From the sequence record PV730299.1: 64,000 nucleotides of DNA; one strand, 5' to 3'. The notes below the pieces were generated by a model. The model was not told where the DNA came from. It saw nothing but the letters and a program-made list of their open reading frames with translations, and ran no database searches. Positions 4,378 to 60,655 of the stretch are shown one piece after another; the first letter of the stretch is position 1, and the number at the start of each line of letters is the position of its first letter. The position numbers were made by a program, and so were the translations under genes. Source of the stretch: a phage.

Positions 4378-5800
4378 TACTCTTCTCCAACAGGAATGCG
4401 ATGTTTTCGATGTACGCTTTCTGTATCGCATAGACTTCATCCAGTGTGTTGGCCACTTTCTTGTCAATGCGGACTTCTACAAGGCGAGGCAGGAACAAAG
4501 ACTTCATCGCATCATCTGTCTTATCCTGTACGCCATTGGAGAGCACTGCGGCGATCTTGCCAATGTAGTCGCCCTGGTTCTCCCACATATGGCGTCTCAG
4601 CTCATCTGAGATCCCTGATACGCCAACAACAAGCAGGCTGTCGGAAGTTTTACAAATCAGTGAGCCAAAAGTCTTGGCGTGTTTACCCTTCTTGTCAGCC
4701 TCGTTGAAGCCCACGATTTCAAGGTCACACTCAACCTCCATCTTCAGCTTCAGACCTTCAGAAGAAGTCCCATCTTCCCAAGGCATGTCGGCGGCCTTAC
4801 ATATCGTGCCTTCTTCTTTGCGAGCCAGCGCGTCTTTGAAGTGGTCGACGGCTTCGGCAAATGAGTGAACAACGCGGGTTTCTTGAACCTGAACCAGACC
4901 GTCGTCTTCATCAAACAGTTGCTGGATAATATCGAAGCGGCGCTCATACGGGATATCCACGCGCTGGGCGTTGAACCAGTTGTCGTACGGGATAACATCC
5001 CACACCCGGTAGATCACCCGATAACGATCTTCCAGGGGTTCTCCTGTCTGAATCACGCTGTTGAGTTTACCGTTACCGACAGCACGAGGCAGGATGGTAT
5101 TCGACTTGAGGTCAACAACGAGAAGTTCACCATGGAACACACTCTCACCAATCCCCGCATCGTAGATCAGGTCTTTGAACACCAGTGAAAGGTTATCAAC
5201 CGAACCACCTGCGATAAGGGAACCGGAGCGAGAGCGAATCTCAGGCTCTTTATTGTACCGACATATGATGTTGGCGAACATACCGTCTGACTTCAGCTGG
5301 CTGTAGACGCCGCGCTTGAAGTCCATCTTCTTCAGCAGGTCAATCGTCATGTTGTCGTAACGATGATACGGAAGAATGTTGATCAGGCGTCCAGTGCCTC
5401 CGGCGGCGTTGAATGCAGCGTTGATGCCCTTCTCAGCGATACCCGCCTTGATATCACGGTCTAGGATCATCTGAATGAGTTCGTGGTATTGGGGATCCAT
5501 CTTCAGGGCGACAGAGGCCAACAGGGCATCAGCCTTTTGGCCACCGACAAGACGCTGCGCCATCTGGTCGAGGACGTCATAGACTTCGCTGATGTCATCA
5601 GTCTTCTCACGGACGAGCATGCGAGGATACGCGCTGAGCTTCAACTCAGTCCGATAGAACGACGTCATTGGGTCATAGACATACTGCAGGAAGTCTGCCA
5701 AGTCTGGGTTGTTCTTGAATGCTTCGGTCAGCACGGCTTTCTTCGCATTGCTGCCTTTGGTTTCGCGAAGTCGGTGGACTATTTCAAGGATAGGGATCAT
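4370..5800 (-). CDS. ATP-dependent DNA ligase
   Basis: 476 aa; adenylation motif KSDG (QLKSDGMFANI); ATG preceded by GGAGG. Confidence 0.85.
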   Translation of the reverse strand: MIPILEIVHRLRETKGSNAKKAVLTEAFKNNPDLADFLQYVYDPMTSFYRTELKLSAYPRMLVREKTDDISEVYDVLDQMAQRLVGGQKADALLASVALKMDPQYHELIQMILDRDIKAGIAEKGINAAFNAAGGTGRLINILPYHRYDNMTIDLLKKMDFKRGVYSQLKSDGMFANIICRYNKEPEIRSRSGSLIAGGSVDNLSLVFKDLIYDAGIGESVFHGELLVVDLKSNTILPRAVGNGKLNSVIQTGEPLEDRYRVIYRVWDVIPYDNWFNAQRVDIPYERRFDIIQQLFDEDDGLVQVQETRVVHSFAEAVDHFKDALARKEEGTICKAADMPWEDGTSSEGLKLKMEVECDLEIVGFNEADKKGKHAKTFGSLICKTSDSLLVVGVSGISDELRRHMWENQGDYIGKIAAVLSNGVQDKTDDAMKSLFLPRLVEVRIDKKVANTLDEVYAIQKAYIENIAFLLEKSNG

Positions 5801-54042: not shown

Positions 54043-54127
54043 GATATAATCTTACCTTTCAACCCGGTGAACCCATCGTTCGCCAGTTATTGAATAATAG
54101 GACATTCCTTAGAGGAAGTAAACCCCT

Positions 54128-54160
54128 AAAAGTAAAAATCCCCAACAAAACGTTGGGGAC
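54128..54160 (-). terminator. rho-independent terminator
   Basis: 8-bp stem TCCCCAAC/GTTGGGGA, loop aaaac, followed on minus strand by TTTTTACTTTT; downstream of ACP-like gene. Confidence 0.7.
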
Positions 54161-54165
54161 TTCTG

Positions 54166-54489
54166 TTATTTGCGCAGGGCAACCACGAGTTCAGCGAGTT
54201 CACCCATGGTCGGGTCATCGCCTTTACTACCCAGCCAACCGTCGTCGATTTCGACCTGAAACTCTTCTTCTAGTTCCATTACGATTTCGATGGCATCCAG
54301 TTCATCACCGCCGAGGTCTTTCTTGGTACGGAGGCCAGCCAGCTTGTCCAGGGCGTCCTCGTTCTGAGATGCCACGTCGTCCAGCAATTTACGCTTGTCA
54401 TCGTCACGCCACAGATCCATATTCAGATTGTCAGTGGCGTACTGAGCCAGATGACGCATGACTTCAACATATGTTGGTTTACTGCTCAT
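54166..54489 (-). CDS. acyl carrier protein-like protein lacking the phosphopantetheinyl serine (DEL instead of DSL)
   Basis: 107 aa; DLGGDELDAIEIVMELEEEFQVEIDD aligns with ACP helix II ([27 protein letters not shown]) but the Ser is Glu; GGGAG RBS; terminators on both sides. Confidence 0.6.
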   Translation of the reverse strand: MSSKPTYVEVMRHLAQYATDNLNMDLWRDDDKRKLLDDVASQNEDALDKLAGLRTKKDLGGDELDAIEIVMELEEEFQVEIDDGWLGSKGDDPTMGELAELVVALRK

Positions 54490-54498
54490 GCTACTTCT

Positions 54499-54526
54499 CC
54501 CAAAGAAAGGCGGGTTGCCCCGCCCG
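54499..54526 (-). terminator. rho-independent terminator/attenuator between vWA and ACP-like genes
   Basis: GGCGGG-ttgc-CCCGCC followed on minus strand by TTTCTTTGGG then ACP-like RBS. Confidence 0.6.
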
Positions 54527-54531
54527 TTGGA

Positions 54532-56733
54532 TTAGATTTTGATTTCTTTCTCTGTCAGTTCGGCAGTGACCTTGTACTTCACGCCATCCACTTCAACTTC
54601 CATGGTGGACTCTTCCAAGTCGAGGTCGGTGAACCAGCCATGGCCAGCAACGATACCATAAACCACTTTAGACAGCGTCTTGTTCAGGGCACGGACTTCG
54701 GTGATGGCCGCCTTGGCAGCAGCGTCGATCCAGTTTTCGATCAGATGTTTCTGTAAGGCTTCAGGCACGGCAGTGATCATAGGAGACTTCACGAATGCTT
54801 CGTACTCCTTCAGCGCATTGGCGATGAACAAGTCACCAGCATTGAGTTTCTTGTTCTCGGCAATCTTCTTCTGTACCGCTGCGATAGACGGTAGAGAAGA
54901 AGCGCCAGCGATCTTCACGTTCAGCTCACGGCTCATGTAGAAGTCGGTAGACTCTTTGGTCTCAGTCTTCGGTGAGAATCCGTAATCGCGGATGCCGTAG
55001 GAGGACAGGAACTCGGCCGCCTCAGCGCCGTACTGTACTGCCAGGCCTTTGGCGTTACCCTTACCAACCAGGGCGTCTCGATAGAACTTCAGCACCTTCT
55101 GCTTGCCTTTCAGGGCTTCCAGACGGACATTATCCGCAAAGAACTGAGCAGCACTGATGTTCTTGACCATGGCGCGGTTGACCAGTGGTACACTTTCCAG
55201 GTTCAGGACAAACACTTCTGGACCACCAAACACGTGGACACCCATTTCGATCAGCTTATGCACGACTTCGATATCAGCCTTGAACGGCAGAGTCTTCACG
55301 TTAATGATACCGTCTTTGACGATCGTGTAGTTGCGCCACTGGAAAGTATCCAGTTCTTCAGGCAGGCCGAACTTCTTCTGTGCGAATTCAGGCACAGCCA
55401 CAGTACCGTGTTGAATTGTACGCACACTGATGTTCGGGCGCTCGGAGTTATAGACCAAATCGCTGATTGGCACAACACCCAGGTCGTTGGTAGGTTCGAA
55501 CGTCGGGTTCCACTCTTCGTGCTCTGCCAGCTTGAGAGCCAGGGCTTTACGCTCTTCTTTGGACTGAGCATTCGCGATCTGTTCTGCCAGCTTGTCTTCG
55601 GTGTCGTCGGTTTTCTGCACAGTACCGCGCCCGATACTCTTATAGGAGAACATCGGATGCTTGGTAGCAACAGGCACACCAGCTTCAGCCAGGTACGTCA
55701 GCACATCAACAACGGTGGTCGCGTCTTCGGCCGGAACCAGGTCATAGTCAATACCGTCAACGCCGCGCAGCTGGTCGTCAACAATCGCCTGAACCAGATC
55801 GTTCTTGATGTTGGAGTAGTCCTGCTTGGTGAAGCAGTTGCTGTACTGTTTGATGAAGCGAACGTCACCCGTTTTCTTCAGTGCAGCCCACACCAGGTCC
55901 GCGTCCATGATGTGTACGCCGTAGAACGCCAGCACGTATGCCGCCTGGATATCCGTCAGACTATCCATCTGGTCGATCATGTTAGGGTTTACAACCCACA
56001 GCTTGGTGACGCTCTCAGGGATGCTCACATAGCCGACCGGGTGAGAGTCATCGTCCTGCACCGCCAGTACTGTTGCCACACCGTTTTCGACGTAGATGGC
56101 ATGGGTGTAGATGACTGGGACATCAACTTTCACCTTCGGCACTGATGACTTCAGCACGTTTTCCAGTTCGGTCTGGTATTCGGTCTGACCTTCGGCAAAC
56201 ACATGAGTCGCGCCAGAGCGCTCGGACATCAGAGCCAGCAGTTCGCGGTTACAGTGCCAGCCGTATTCGATGAAAGTAATGTTATCGAACACAGAAGGCA
56301 AGGTTTCGGCGACGGCCAGGATTTCGTTTGAGCGCCAGCAGTTGTCATAACCATCGGTCATGAATGCCAGGTTGTTGACGTAACCAGGTTTCTTCAGGTC
56401 ACGCGCAGTATCCATCGCCAGTTTCAACGGCTCAACGAAGCCAGTACATCCGGACGGTTGCAGGAAGCGATCGATCAGTTTGTTCAGCTCGCTCAGGTCA
56501 GACGCAGCACTAACCTGGCGGCCAGCGAACACAGTACCAAAGTCGCCTTTGGAGGAGAAATACAGAACGCTCACAGTGTCTTCCGGTTTCACCAGGGAAG
56601 GCAGGTTCTCCTTCAGATGCTTACGGACTTCAGGGAGCGCACGGTACATAGAGCCGGAAATGTCTACAACGATTACATGGTTGGACGGGGCAGCAGTCGC
56701 AACCGCATTCTTAAATTCTAATGATTCAATCAT
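54532..56733 (-). CDS. von Willebrand factor A (vWA) domain protein
   Basis: Start set at MIESLEF; MIDAS-like VIVVDISGSM near N-terminus followed by vWA-like fold; about 500-aa C-terminal region without recognised motifs. Confidence 0.6.
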   Translation of the reverse strand: MIESLEFKNAVATAAPSNHVIVVDISGSMYRALPEVRKHLKENLPSLVKPEDTVSVLYFSSKGDFGTVFAGRQVSAASDLSELNKLIDRFLQPSGCTGFVEPLKLAMDTARDLKKPGYVNNLAFMTDGYDNCWRSNEILAVAETLPSVFDNITFIEYGWHCNRELLALMSERSGATHVFAEGQTEYQTELENVLKSSVPKVKVDVPVIYTHAIYVENGVATVLAVQDDDSHPVGYVSIPESVTKLWVVNPNMIDQMDSLTDIQAAYVLAFYGVHIMDADLVWAALKKTGDVRFIKQYSNCFTKQDYSNIKNDLVQAIVDDQLRGVDGIDYDLVPAEDATTVVDVLTYLAEAGVPVATKHPMFSYKSIGRGTVQKTDDTEDKLAEQIANAQSKEERKALALKLAEHEEWNPTFEPTNDLGVVPISDLVYNSERPNISVRTIQHGTVAVPEFAQKKFGLPEELDTFQWRNYTIVKDGIINVKTLPFKADIEVVHKLIEMGVHVFGGPEVFVLNLESVPLVNRAMVKNISAAQFFADNVRLEALKGKQKVLKFYRDALVGKGNAKGLAVQYGAEAAEFLSSYGIRDYGFSPKTETKESTDFYMSRELNVKIAGASSLPSIAAVQKKIAENKKLNAGDLFIANALKEYEAFVKSPMITAVPEALQKHLIENWIDAAAKAAITEVRALNKTLSKVVYGIVAGHGWFTDLDLEESTMEVEVDGVKYKVTAELTEKEIKI

Positions 56734-56941
56734 TGTTCTCTTCGCCTTGTGCGTAAGGGTTAAGTTCAGACTCATCAGCGGCTTCGATGCGCGTCTTTAC
56801 AGAGTCCAGCATATTGTTGATAAATTCACGAGACTGCTCCAGCTGAGCCAAGAGCACATCCTTTGGAGCATAGTTCTGAATGCAAGCCGGAATACTTTCA
56901 GACGTCGCCTTCAGGTCGGTAAAACATTCTTTCAGTATCAT
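56726..56941 (-). CDS. hypothetical acidic protein
   Basis: 71-aa ORF overlapping vWA gene start by 8 nt. Confidence 0.35.
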   Translation of the reverse strand: MILKECFTDLKATSESIPACIQNYAPKDVLLAQLEQSREFINNMLDSVKTRIEAADESELNPYAQGEENND

Positions 56942-57043: not shown

Positions 57044-58708
57044 TCAGATTTGTGAGGCCAGTTCTGTCACCAGAGGAGCGGCACGAACACGCGCATCTTC
57101 CAGTGTTTGAGTATTGAAGAACTCGCCATCACGATACACCAGCTGGTGCTGGTTGTCGGCGTCTTGCACCTGATCAAAGGTGATACCGTCAACCAACACT
57201 AGTTTACCCTGAGAGTCTTTAATGACTTTAAGGAAACCACGCGCAGACTTTTTAGTCCCGCCTTTATCGGTCTTCGGCTCTTTGAAGATCTCACGGAATT
57301 CGCCGTTCACTTTACCAGCCGTGGCTTTCACCGCCGTGCCAGTACTGTCACGGGTGTTCATCTGGTAGGTGTAGGAACCGATACCGAACACCACGTTGAT
57401 GGAAGCGAAGTTCCGGTCAGCCAGACGGCTAAAGATCTGGTCTTCACGCGACAGGGTGATAGAATCACCGTAGATCAGGCCGATGTGCTCATCCAACAGG
57501 AAGTGCCCAGTTTCAGTCTGGGTGCCACCAAAGATCTCCCACAGGCGCTGGATAGAGCCGACCGCTTCTGAACGGCTGATGATATTACGGTCATCTGCCA
57601 TCAGAGAGTTGATCGTGCCTTCGCCTGTAATCAGGTGGTAGGTGTTCGTCTCTTCGATGTGAATAACTTCTGTGTCGCTAGACACACCGCTAATGTTCAG
57701 CGTGGCACGGTCTTTGAACCCCTCGATGCGGTAGCCGCCAACAATGTGTACAGGGTCGCCCGAGTCGGGGCGGATCACGACTTTACCATTGCGCGCCATG
57801 ATAATGTCTTTCAGGCGAGGGAGATAGTCGTCGATGACCTGCCAGTAATCCCATGCATCAGACACGATGCTGACGGTGCCATCAGGATACACGTCCTGCA
57901 CCAGGCGGCGGAAGGTTTCGAATTCGCCATCCTTCGTGCCCATACACATCACGGCGTGTTCGGTAGCCGCAACAGAACCAGCAACGACATAATCTTCGTC
58001 GATGTCTGCGCCATAATACTCTTCTACGAAGTCTAGGGCAGGGTTGGTATCGGTGCCTTTGAAGAACACCAGATGACCGGAACCGGAAGACGCCGCGTCA
58101 TGCCACCCGCTCATACCACGGAAGGAGAAGTCGTGGCCTTGGTAGTCGATGAACCAATGGTCCGGCGACACGCCTGTAGCGAGGGCAGCTTTCACCATCA
58201 GTGCCTTGTAATGCAGAGCTATGGTGGCGTTCGTCATCGGCTTCCATATCTCAGAGCTGAACACGGTCTCCAGATAGTTGGTCAGCCAGTAGAACTCCGG
58301 CAGGGTATTGAACATCACATACACCGGAACGCCATACGGGCACATGGTGCCTTCAGGCAGCGCACGGACTTCGATAGGAAGGTAGCCGAGGTCATGCAGG
58401 GCTTCAATATGCTCTGTGCCGACGCGGCCTGGACCCAGGACTTTGTTCATGCGACGGGCATACTTCTTCAGCACCTTGGCCTTCGGGCACTGGAAGAATG
58501 CTTCGTCAAACAGTTCGTGGAACCAGGTCATGAAGCCCTGGATGCCCCAGACCACCACTCCGTTCTTCGGCAGGTGAGAGTTGAACAGTTTGTTAGAGCG
58601 CGGAGTTCCGTTGGAGAACACCAGCTCACTGCCTTCAGGGAACTGATAGATGTGCCCCGATTTGTAGAAGTCGATTGCATGGATTGGGTCTAAGTGGCGC
58701 ATGCTCAT
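57044..58708 (-). CDS. nicotinamide phosphoribosyltransferase-family protein (NadV/Namat-like)
   Basis: 554 aa; NAMPT-family pattern along full length; ATGA overlap with Prs-family gene; terminator downstream. Confidence 0.8.
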   Translation of the reverse strand: MSMRHLDPIHAIDFYKSGHIYQFPEGSELVFSNGTPRSNKLFNSHLPKNGVVVWGIQGFMTWFHELFDEAFFQCPKAKVLKKYARRMNKVLGPGRVGTEHIEALHDLGYLPIEVRALPEGTMCPYGVPVYVMFNTLPEFYWLTNYLETVFSSEIWKPMTNATIALHYKALMVKAALATGVSPDHWFIDYQGHDFSFRGMSGWHDAASSGSGHLVFFKGTDTNPALDFVEEYYGADIDEDYVVAGSVAATEHAVMCMGTKDGEFETFRRLVQDVYPDGTVSIVSDAWDYWQVIDDYLPRLKDIIMARNGKVVIRPDSGDPVHIVGGYRIEGFKDRATLNISGVSSDTEVIHIEETNTYHLITGEGTINSLMADDRNIISRSEAVGSIQRLWEIFGGTQTETGHFLLDEHIGLIYGDSITLSREDQIFSRLADRNFASINVVFGIGSYTYQMNTRDSTGTAVKATAGKVNGEFREIFKEPKTDKGGTKKSARGFLKVIKDSQGKLVLVDGITFDQVQDADNQHQLVYRDGEFFNTQTLEDARVRAAPLVTELASQI

Positions 58709-59559
58709 TTTACACGTCCTGTATTTTCAGTTTTGAAAGGAAGCCCGTCGGCGGTGATGTTCTCCCACCAGACAGTGTCGGCATACACAGCATCATAGAT
58801 CCCGTCGAAAACAGAGAGACCTTTGCTGAAGATGCCATGGGTAACGAAGAGTGTCATGTGCTTAGGCTTGTGCTTCTGAAGCTCTTTGCCTAACTCAACG
58901 AAAGTGCGCCCGCCGTCGCAGATATCATCAACCACAACCAGATAGCGGTCTTTGATCAGTTCAGGGTTCGTAATACTCACCCCAATGATCTCACCAGTCT
59001 TGGTGTCACGGTTCTTGTGACCGTAGACAATAGGAACACCGTCCAACGACAGGCTGAGGGCTTCGGTCTTCTTAGCCGCGCCGCCGTCAGGGGCCACCAA
59101 CACAGCGTTGTTCCCACGGATGAACCAACCCAGATACTGACGCACGATGTAATCTTGCGGGACAACATGGACGTTGTTGATCAGAGAAGACACAACATGG
59201 CTGTGAGGATCTTTGATCGCCACGCGGTCAAAGTTCATGCTATTGATGAACTCAGCCGCCCACTTCACAGACAGAGGCTCACCGAAGTCACAATGGCGGT
59301 CCTGGCGAGCATACGGGAAATAAGGGATATACGCATGGAATGTCGTCAGACGGTCCACGTTACCCAGACCACGAACGGCGTTTACCAGAAGCGCCAGCTC
59401 AATGAAGTCAGCCGATGATTTGATGTGAGCATCAATCACCACGTTCTGAACGTGGCCGATAGGGATACCAGACTTTTGAATCTTGATATGTTCCTCACCA
59501 CCTGGGAAGGTGAAGTGTTTGTAGAACACATCTTGGTCGTTCAATTTCAAACGAAACAT
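58705..59559 (-). CDS. ribose-phosphate pyrophosphokinase-family protein (Prs/Adps-like)
   Basis: 284 aa; phosphoribosyl-binding block VVVDDICDGGRTF and N-terminal Prs-like domain; GAGG RBS. Confidence 0.8.
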   Translation of the reverse strand: MFRLKLNDQDVFYKHFTFPGGEEHIKIQKSGIPIGHVQNVVIDAHIKSSADFIELALLVNAVRGLGNVDRLTTFHAYIPYFPYARQDRHCDFGEPLSVKWAAEFINSMNFDRVAIKDPHSHVVSSLINNVHVVPQDYIVRQYLGWFIRGNNAVLVAPDGGAAKKTEALSLSLDGVPIVYGHKNRDTKTGEIIGVSITNPELIKDRYLVVVDDICDGGRTFVELGKELQKHKPKHMTLFVTHGIFSKGLSVFDGIYDAVYADTVWWENITADGLPFKTENTGRVK

Positions 59560-60301: not shown

Positions 60302-60595
60302 TTATCCCCAGCTTATGCGCCAGCCAACTGTAAGCGTCGCTCCTGCTCCTCTCTCCGTTTTCCATAATGGGTCAAACGATCTATGGGCTTTTTGCTTCTC
60401 GGCACGGAGAGCGGCATTCGCCATCCTTCCCAGAGGCTGTCTGCCGTCGCCATGGGCATGGCAACCGACACGGGCATCACACGGGGTGCATATCCAGAAC
60501 TTCAGATTGCGGAGGTCAGGGCGATGAGGGTAGAGAACATCACCACCGACGAATTCGGCTGGGAGGCCACAGTAATCACATATAACATGTTTCAT
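60302..60595 (-). CDS. DUF3268-like zinc-ribbon protein
   Basis: Start at MKHVICDYCG; CxxC...CxxC with PLG and FDPLWK blocks typical of this phage zinc-ribbon family. Confidence 0.55.
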   Translation of the reverse strand: MKHVICDYCGLPAEFVGGDVLYPHRPDLRNLKFWICTPCDARVGCHAHGDGRQPLGRMANAALRAEKQKAHRSFDPLWKTERGAGATLTVGWRISWG

Positions 60596-60655
60596 ATTCT
60601 TTGTCCAAAAGAAACCCCGCACATGGCGGGGTTGCTCAGGCTGAGGTCAGACAGA

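Follow-up and report, generated by a model that had tools for sequence, protein, structure and literature searches.

Acyl carrier protein (ACP) of the AcpP type (PF00550; TIGR00517) has its serine in the motif D-S-L; in Escherichia coli this is Ser36, to which phosphopantetheine is attached. Forms of E. coli ACP with the same fold and no prosthetic group are known as apo-ACP and as Ser36 mutants; they are non-functional carriers, and ACP(S36T) can not be modified with 4'-phosphopantetheine (PMC3340395). ACP-fold accessory subunits are known from eukaryotic organelles (the 'acyl carrier-like subunit' 7w5z_AC, mt-SAF32 6sga_Fc, and Pfam Ribosomal_L50). Ocr and Arn are small, strongly acidic phage proteins that occupy the binding site of another macromolecule; they mimic DNA, have an unrelated fold, and are not mimics of protein cofactor carriers. 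Vi01-like phages have entries named 'acyl carrier protein' (CBA120 orf142, Maynard_88, Det7 gp45 and ViI E1XTD1; PHROG 4154), and the protein described here belongs to this very family. It is the 107-aa product of open reading frame (ORF) 54166-54489 in a stretch of 64,000 nucleotides from phage sequence record PV730299.1; this whole stretch is referred to as the window. On the evidence of sequence comparison, the product is a selected and conserved ACP-fold protein that belongs to the core of the Ackermannviridae, has permanently lost the attachment serine, and is no acyl carrier.

Where AcpP has the serine, the members of the phage family always have Glu or Asp; they also contain an additional variable insertion of 25 residues and differ in helix III (W85, GDDPT). 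No carrier-dependent enzymes are encoded nearby: genes for a phosphopantetheinyl transferase, ketosynthase, acyltransferase or adenylation enzyme were not found within ~10 kb of the gene, either in the window or in phage Maynard. The protein shares with apo-ACP and the Ser36 mutants a fold that carries no prosthetic group, but those are laboratory or transient forms of a host protein, whereas the phage protein comes from a dedicated, selected gene, its acidic residue is fixed and it has an extra loop. Its relation to the organellar subunits is one of fold only, and a likeness to Ocr and Arn would be functional and is speculative. Among the catalogued defence and anti-defence models, no PADLOC match was obtained for it. 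The family is already catalogued in PHROG 4154, GenBank and UniProt, though misnamed; it is an ACP fold that has become a non-carrier protein in phages. Many records read 'acyl carrier protein', and those of the closest relatives (AV101, LHE287 and YX22) read 'hypothetical protein'. The carrier function in lipid or polyketide metabolism that the first of these names implies is ruled out by the sequence. In the literature searched, the gene figures as a table entry only, and the missing serine is discussed in no paper found; a 2024 review of Ackermannviridae biology contains no mention of the gene. Literature searches for phage ACP-like decoys, for interactions between ACP and phage proteins, and for Ackermannviridae transcriptomes returned nothing relevant beyond table entries naming the gene.

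The similarity of the phage protein to ACPs exceeds chance, because it was recovered by BLASTP, phmmer, Pfam and PHROG searches. BLASTP aligns residues 57-83 of the protein with residues 30-56 of E. coli ACP (17/27 identities, E = 4e-9, gapless). A phmmer search of PDB sequences recovered dozens of ACPs, with B. subtilis ACP at the top (E = 5.5e-6) and in the identical register. With the Pfam profile PP-binding (PF00550) the score is 26.0 bits (gathering cut-off 20.8), and only profile positions 26-66 are covered. The match to PHROG 4154 'acyl carrier protein' is full-length (E = 2e-57); the category of this entry is the generic 'moron, auxiliary metabolic gene and host takeover'. NCBIfam TIGR00517 reaches 34.6 bits of the required 70.45, and the remaining ACP equivalogs are likewise below threshold. 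In BFVD, the ViI homolog named 'Acyl carrier protein' (E1XTD1) was matched with a TM-score of 0.85, and the protein has the helical fold of acyl and peptidyl carrier proteins. The original prediction, made from the letters of the window, that this ORF aligns with ACP helix II is borne out by the gapless alignment and by the phmmer register; profile and structure searches, proposed with it as a check of the fold, found matches. Helix II has 11 of its 16 residues in common with residues 35-50 of E. coli ACP, including acidic equivalents of D35, D38, E41, E47 and E48. By an alignment with canonical ACPs made with MAFFT, the extra 30 residues relative to AcpP are chiefly an insertion of ~25 residues between helix I (7-21) and helix II (62-77) and not an N-terminal extension. 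The product is strongly acidic, with a pI of 4.26 and 27 Asp plus Glu against 13 Lys plus Arg.

In all alignments Glu63 falls on the serine that carries phosphopantetheine in E. coli ACP. A search of 5.8 billion proteins yielded 41 clusters, and a profile search 52. Among the 52 cluster representatives with the motif region, this position is Glu in 43, Asp in nine, and Ser in none; no serine is conserved elsewhere in the protein in these representatives, and there is no invariant Thr or Cys either. For comparison, 57 other phage ACP-like proteins were chosen by a position-blind motif, and 54 of them have Ser and three Glu or Asp. The codon was compared at 24 Ackermannviridae loci: it is GAA in 15, GAT in eight and GAC in one, and the largest genus, Kuttervirus, has Asp. 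Relatives of 33-50% identity (P0042-P0049, including Salmonella phage CRW-SP2) read D-E-L or D-D-L, and gp092 of Serratia phage phiMAM1, a very divergent copy of 90 aa, keeps the acidic residue ('WFDELDRIE'). An un-annotated ORF of 99 aa in Erwinia phage vB_EamM-Bue1 (MG973030.1; locus L141, ~5316-5615), absent from the recorded gene calls, is a divergent family member with the motif AMDELDYIEFIMELEDD ('AMDELDYIE') and E = 7e-12 to the family hidden Markov model (HMM). It lies directly 3' of a gene for a protein with a VWA domain, which is treated below. With DEL or DDL throughout the homologs and Ser in none of them, the change from serine to an acidic residue is neither a sequencing error nor a quirk of the strain; Glu or Asp is fixed family-wide. 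Since S36T is already unmodifiable (PMC3340395), Glu or Asp at that position is predicted to be unmodifiable too, and the predicted loss of the site for 4'-phosphopantetheine stands, with an acidic residue in 52/52 clusters.

The window comes from an E. coli phage of the Aglimvirinae (Ackermannviridae); this region shares 96-98% identity with the Escherichia phages LHE287, YX22 and AV101, which belong there too. The ACP-like protein was found with tblastn in 271 phage records, at a length coverage of at least 80% in all of them; the hosts of these phages belong to Salmonella, Klebsiella, Escherichia, Dickeya, Shigella, Enterobacter and Serratia. As the neighbouring VWA protein is present at an identity of at least 60% in 270 records, the ACP-like gene is core to the main Ackermannviridae genera. 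Two alignments made in a search of IMG/VR for close relatives outside the Ackermannviridae gave generic phage ACPs only, mostly with Ser. Pairwise dN/dS values against the window gene are 0.04-0.31, so the gene is under purifying selection. Approximately 30 residues are invariant over 33 family sequences. In helix I, the positions Y7, V10, L14, A18, N21 and L22 are invariant or nearly so; in helix II, D62, L64, I67, E68, E74 and E76 are invariant and E63, D65, M71 and E75 nearly invariant. Where helix II starts, D58, D62, E/D63 and D65 form an acidic cluster, in which D58 is conserved in most family members. A motif specific to the family, W85...G-D-D-P-T-x-G-E, lies ahead of helix IV.

The insertion (~residues 25-48) occurs in at least four unrelated versions within the family. 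At the nucleotide level, the gene matches that of phage Maynard at 100% over its first 75 nt and at 87-100% over its last ~170 nt; the ~70 nt between them are ~57% identical and contain indels. The gene is mosaic, and its middle behaves like an exchangeable cassette. A frameshift as the source of the divergent central segment was rejected; the other frames are full of stops. Flanks that are identical or nearly so between phages of different subfamilies, around an unrelated centre of ~70 nt, were also seen at L001 13168-13494 and L007 8001-8327. The features of the locus are listed in Table 1.

Table 1. Features at and around the ACP-like gene (positions in the window) and further bacterial loci
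Feature	Position	Strand	Basis or remark
CDS (coding sequence), 107-aa serine-less ACP-fold protein	54166..54489	minus	ATG start, real ORF
Codon GAA = Glu63, position of Ser36 (phosphopantetheine attachment) in E. coli ACP	54301..54303	minus	alignments
Helix II ('recognition helix'), residues 62-77, DELDAIEIVMELEEEF	54259..54306	minus	family alignments
Hypervariable mosaic insertion, ~residues 25-48, between ACP helices I and II	54346..54417	minus	MAFFT alignment
Ribosome-binding site (RBS) GGGAGAAG, 5 nt 5' of ATG	54494..54501	minus	read from sequence
GC-rich terminator-like hairpin in the interval between VWA gene and ACP-like gene	54508..54525	minus	terminator scan and folding
Intrinsic terminator 3' of the ACP-like gene, 13-bp extended stem then U5	54127..54159	minus	sequence and folding
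733-aa protein, N-terminal VWA domain, intact MIDAS (metal-ion-dependent adhesion site)	54532..56733	minus	gene directly upstream of the ACP-like gene
Further bacterial serine-less PP-binding-type domains	L103; L136; L092; L095, L099, L110, L123, L137		

The gene had been predicted to have its own RBS, which was located, and to be bracketed by two strong hairpins. Both hairpins exist, but the upstream one is the weaker (z = -2.4 vs -4.1) and overlaps the RBS. It consists of the stem GGGCGGG/CCCGCC followed by UUUCUUU and folds at -18.3 kcal/mol; 4 of 200 shuffled sequences were as stable or better. The downstream terminator (stem-loop 54139-54159, then U5) folds at -18.4 kcal/mol, and none of 200 shuffles was as stable. 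In phage Maynard, an RBS is annotated at the equivalent site of the ACP-like gene and a terminator at the place of the upstream hairpin. The minimum free energy fold of the intergenic RNA (54490-54540, minus strand) has an outer helix around the terminator-like hairpin that pairs with the Shine-Dalgarno sequence of the ACP-like gene; as modelled, this element might regulate translation as well as transcription of the gene. The gene is translated: one peptide of a Kuttervirus homolog, gp186 of the Vi01-like phage Sajous1, was detected by proteomics (PMC10892097).

Serine-less domains of this kind are not confined to phages. A pattern scan for LG[GAM]D[ED]LD, using one genome per prokaryotic species, gave 52 loci with ACP-like domains that scored PP-binding above the Pfam threshold. 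Some of them are small proteins with signal-peptide or lipoprotein leaders. In Streptomyces/Kitasatospora (L111, L112, L115 and L129) the domain is located C-terminal to Trypsin_2, nSTAND_NTPase5 and TPR domains, and in a Caldilinea metagenome-assembled genome (L114) it occurs together with TIR and zinc fingers, with PADLOC TIR matches. Further contexts are a fusion with Sel1 repeats, tandem copies at the end of a 1266-aa Sphingobacterium protein, and an insertion in a GlcNAc-2-epimerase-like protein. The flanks of 45 bacterial D[ED]L ACP-like genes comprise 140 genes and 137 Pfam families and are heterogeneous. As read from these sequences, the ACP fold has been reused as a non-carrier module in bacteria and phages; no paper describing bacterial serine-less acidic ACP-like proteins, or an ACP-like adaptor in STAND/TIR systems, was found in the literature searched. 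In IMG/VR, marine-type phage contigs (L035, L037-L041, L045, L048-L050, L052 and L059) encode ACP-like proteins of 73-79 aa with D-A-L, in which Ser is replaced by Ala. Immediately upstream of these genes lies a gene with a product that by eye looked MazG-like, and this lineage of uncultured phages provides a second, independent serine-less ACP-like protein. A few IMG/VR contigs encode ACP-like proteins with D-E-L.

A role as an acidic binding protein or decoy with a putative partner is probable for the phage protein, and a decoy or anti-defence function is plausible, with a serious rival in the VWA neighbour. Ranked first among the readings, although tentatively, is that of a non-acylatable mimic of host ACP. 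The protein would work as a small acidic docking module by means of the ACP recognition face, which would be formed by the invariant carboxylate cluster D58, D62, E/D63, D65 and E68 together with E74-E76. The carboxylate at position 63 would be placed where the phosphodiester of holo-ACP would sit, and would keep host AcpS from making the protein a working carrier. Helix-II docking sites on host ACP clients would be occupied and no substrate delivered, which would resemble the growth inhibition by unmodified apo-ACP; Keating, Carey and Cronan reportedly found in 1995 that apo-ACP potently inhibits the growth of E. coli. Possible clients would be fatty-acid, lipid A or phospholipid enzymes, AcpS, and non-lipid clients, and the hypervariable insertion beside the docking face may tune the specificity. 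The pattern expected of a decoy, with the docking surface kept and the activity lost, was found: the acidic and hydrophobic positions of helix II are conserved and the attachment serine is gone. A mosaic, hypervariable loop that adjoins a conserved face is what one would expect of a host-interaction surface.

Several points weigh against mimicry of host ACP. No interaction or phenotype data on a host target are contained in the literature searched. The helix II motif is generic to the fold and is kept equally in bacterial serine-less ACP-like proteins unrelated to fatty-acid synthesis; since these domains, found with signal peptides or in fusions with TIR, STAND-TPR and Sel1, keep helix II, its conservation alone is no evidence of binding to fatty-acid enzymes. 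The closest solved ACPs are those of Bacillus and Thermotoga and not that of the host, so that nothing points to a specific imitation of enterobacterial AcpP. In the region of helix III (W85, GDDPT) the protein is unlike AcpP, and its insertion of 25 residues might get in the way of docking on ACP clients. In addition, many genes for host takeover and anti-defence have a patchy distribution, and this one belongs to the syntenic core. A charge mimic of holo-ACP that would jam either the ACP docking site of the host or an immune protein with the same serine-less adaptor domain is rather unlikely. In the case in which this were true, the protein could be considered a new class of host-takeover or counter-defence factor built on a carrier-protein fold, and widespread, undescribed serine-less acidic ACP-like interaction domains in bacteria would be indicated as well.

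The VWA protein encoded next to the ACP-like gene has the MIDAS residues D24-x-S26-x-S28, T97 and D127 (733-aa numbering). Across 48 VWA homologs, the DxSxS motif, the T and the D are invariant or at least 90% conserved, and the VWA fold was confirmed. Translation probably starts at the second Met of ORF 54532..56775, so that the listed start would be 14 codons too far upstream. The protein belongs to PHROG 2426 ('unknown function'); its N-terminal part, the VWA domain plus a beta-sandwich, resembles ArnB and Sec23/24, and the further ~440 residues gave no recognisable PDB match among the top matches. The family is very widespread in large myoviruses, with members in Ackermannviridae, Straboviridae of the RB16/KP15 group, Shewanella phage Thanatos-1, Bacillus phage PBS1, Rhizobium phages and contigs of up to 450 kb. 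Read-through from the VWA gene as a programmed event was considered and rejected: the spacing of 42 nt, which is in frame in the window, is 41 nt in Maynard.

Ranked second, as possible but doubtful, is the reading of the ACP-like protein as a ligand or regulatory partner of this VWA protein, and hence as a subunit or adaptor of a phage complex; the same doubt applies to the proposal, made by analogy with the acidic ligands of integrin I-domains, that the exposed Glu/Asp63, at the helix II tip, would fill the coordination sphere of the MIDAS metal. In all Ackermannviridae examined, as in the window, where 42 nt separate them, the two genes are neighbours with the same orientation; the VWA gene comes first in Maynard, CRW-SP2, two metagenomic contigs and Bue1, and in phiMAM1 the two are ~900 bp apart. 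Adjacency is kept where the ACP-like protein is only 34-39% identical (CRW-SP2, L083 and L085), and even in Bue1, where the copy has diverged further still. This argument is weakened by the conservation of gene order throughout the phage family whatever the function, by a terminator-like hairpin that separates the two genes, and by occurrences of the VWA protein elsewhere, in the RB16 and KP15 groups of Straboviridae (47-49% identity) and more distantly in Thanatos-1, PBS1 and jumbo-phage contigs. At five VWA loci outside the Ackermannviridae (RB16, PBS1, Thanatos-1, an Aeromonas-associated contig and a soil contig), a six-frame search with the family HMM detected no ACP-like gene within ~3 kb; the VWA protein is therefore not generally dependent on one, and co-occurrence of the two genes beyond the shared synteny of the family was not found. 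The record counts given above match, and both proteins were detected at an equally low level in one proteome, but in the same genome pairs the VWA protein is 73-93% and the ACP-like protein 34-97% conserved, contrary to tight co-evolution. The complete, conserved MIDAS of the putative partner and the interchange of Glu and Asp at position 63, which fits metal coordination in that the carboxylate alone matters, speak for the ligand role; the 45 bacterial serine-less ACP-like genes have no enrichment of VWA among their neighbours. Ranked third, and about equally uncertain, is a role as a non-carrier accessory subunit of some other partner, be it an enzyme of the phage or a host protein other than an ACP client, for which the organellar ACP-fold subunits would be the model. 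With as little assurance, the acidic residue may then take over from the prosthetic group and simply lend stability to the fold or to a divalent-cation site. This explanation offers no pointer to a specific partner and leaves the hypervariable cassette unexplained.

A role as a decoy for bacterial immune proteins with serine-less ACP-like adaptor domains, comparable to viral decoys that consist of a death domain or a CARD only, is improbable. It would fit the position of serine-less D[ED]L domains at the C-terminus of the Trypsin_2, nSTAND_NTPase5 and TPR proteins (L111, L112, L115 and L129) and beside TIR (L114), the Trypco2 and TIR genes among the neighbours of such domains, and the mosaic hypervariable segment of the phage gene. 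These bacterial proteins are, however, from Actinomycetota, Chloroflexota and other phyla and not from Enterobacterales hosts, and the likeness of their domains to the phage protein is generic ACP similarity only. PADLOC gave no match for either the phage protein or the STAND protein, and the phage gene is core and not accessory. It is very improbable that the protein is a carrier of a different kind, with a substrate on the carboxylate of Glu or on another residue, perhaps for thymidine hypermodification. The amino-group carrier protein LysW is a precedent for a Glu-linked carrier. These phages also make 5-(2-aminoethoxy)methyl-dU (PMC5889632). Glu and Asp are, however, freely interchanged (Kuttervirus has Asp), which is unlikely for the attachment point of a specific ligase; no ATP-grasp or ligase gene is located nearby, and the absence of any other invariant Ser, Thr or Cys speaks against attachment at another residue. 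A role in thymidine hypermodification was rejected, as five ViI gene products make the modified base in vitro and a carrier is never mentioned (PMC5889632). Least credible of all is a functionless, decaying remnant of a captured ACP gene. The gene evolves faster than its VWA neighbour, as a remnant might, but the low dN/dS and the ~30 invariant residues contradict decay, as do its retention in 271 genomes and in genera diverged to ~25% identity, its own RBS and terminator, and the detected peptide.

The Ackermannviridae (Vi01-, CBA120- and LIMEstone-like phages), to the core of which the ACP-like gene belongs, are widely used in biocontrol and therapy. Recognition of the family as carrier-dead corrects the annotation in many genome records and in PHROGs. 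The protein is small, easily expressed and open to clear experiments. If its partner were a host ACP client or an immune protein, a new viral exploitation of the most connected small protein in bacterial metabolism would have been found.

Further upstream, the region 57044-59559 (minus strand) encodes a 554-aa nicotinamide phosphoribosyltransferase (Pfam NAPRTase; PHROG 'nicotinamide phosphoribosyl transferase') followed by a 284-aa protein resembling phosphoribosyl pyrophosphate (PRPP) synthetase. The pair is of the NAD-salvage kind that is discussed as a phage counter to NAD-depleting defence, and it is absent at this place in Maynard. A DUF3268 zinc-finger protein is encoded at 60302-60622 (minus strand); the same domain recurs close to the VWA gene of Bue1 and to that of an Aeromonas-associated phage contig.

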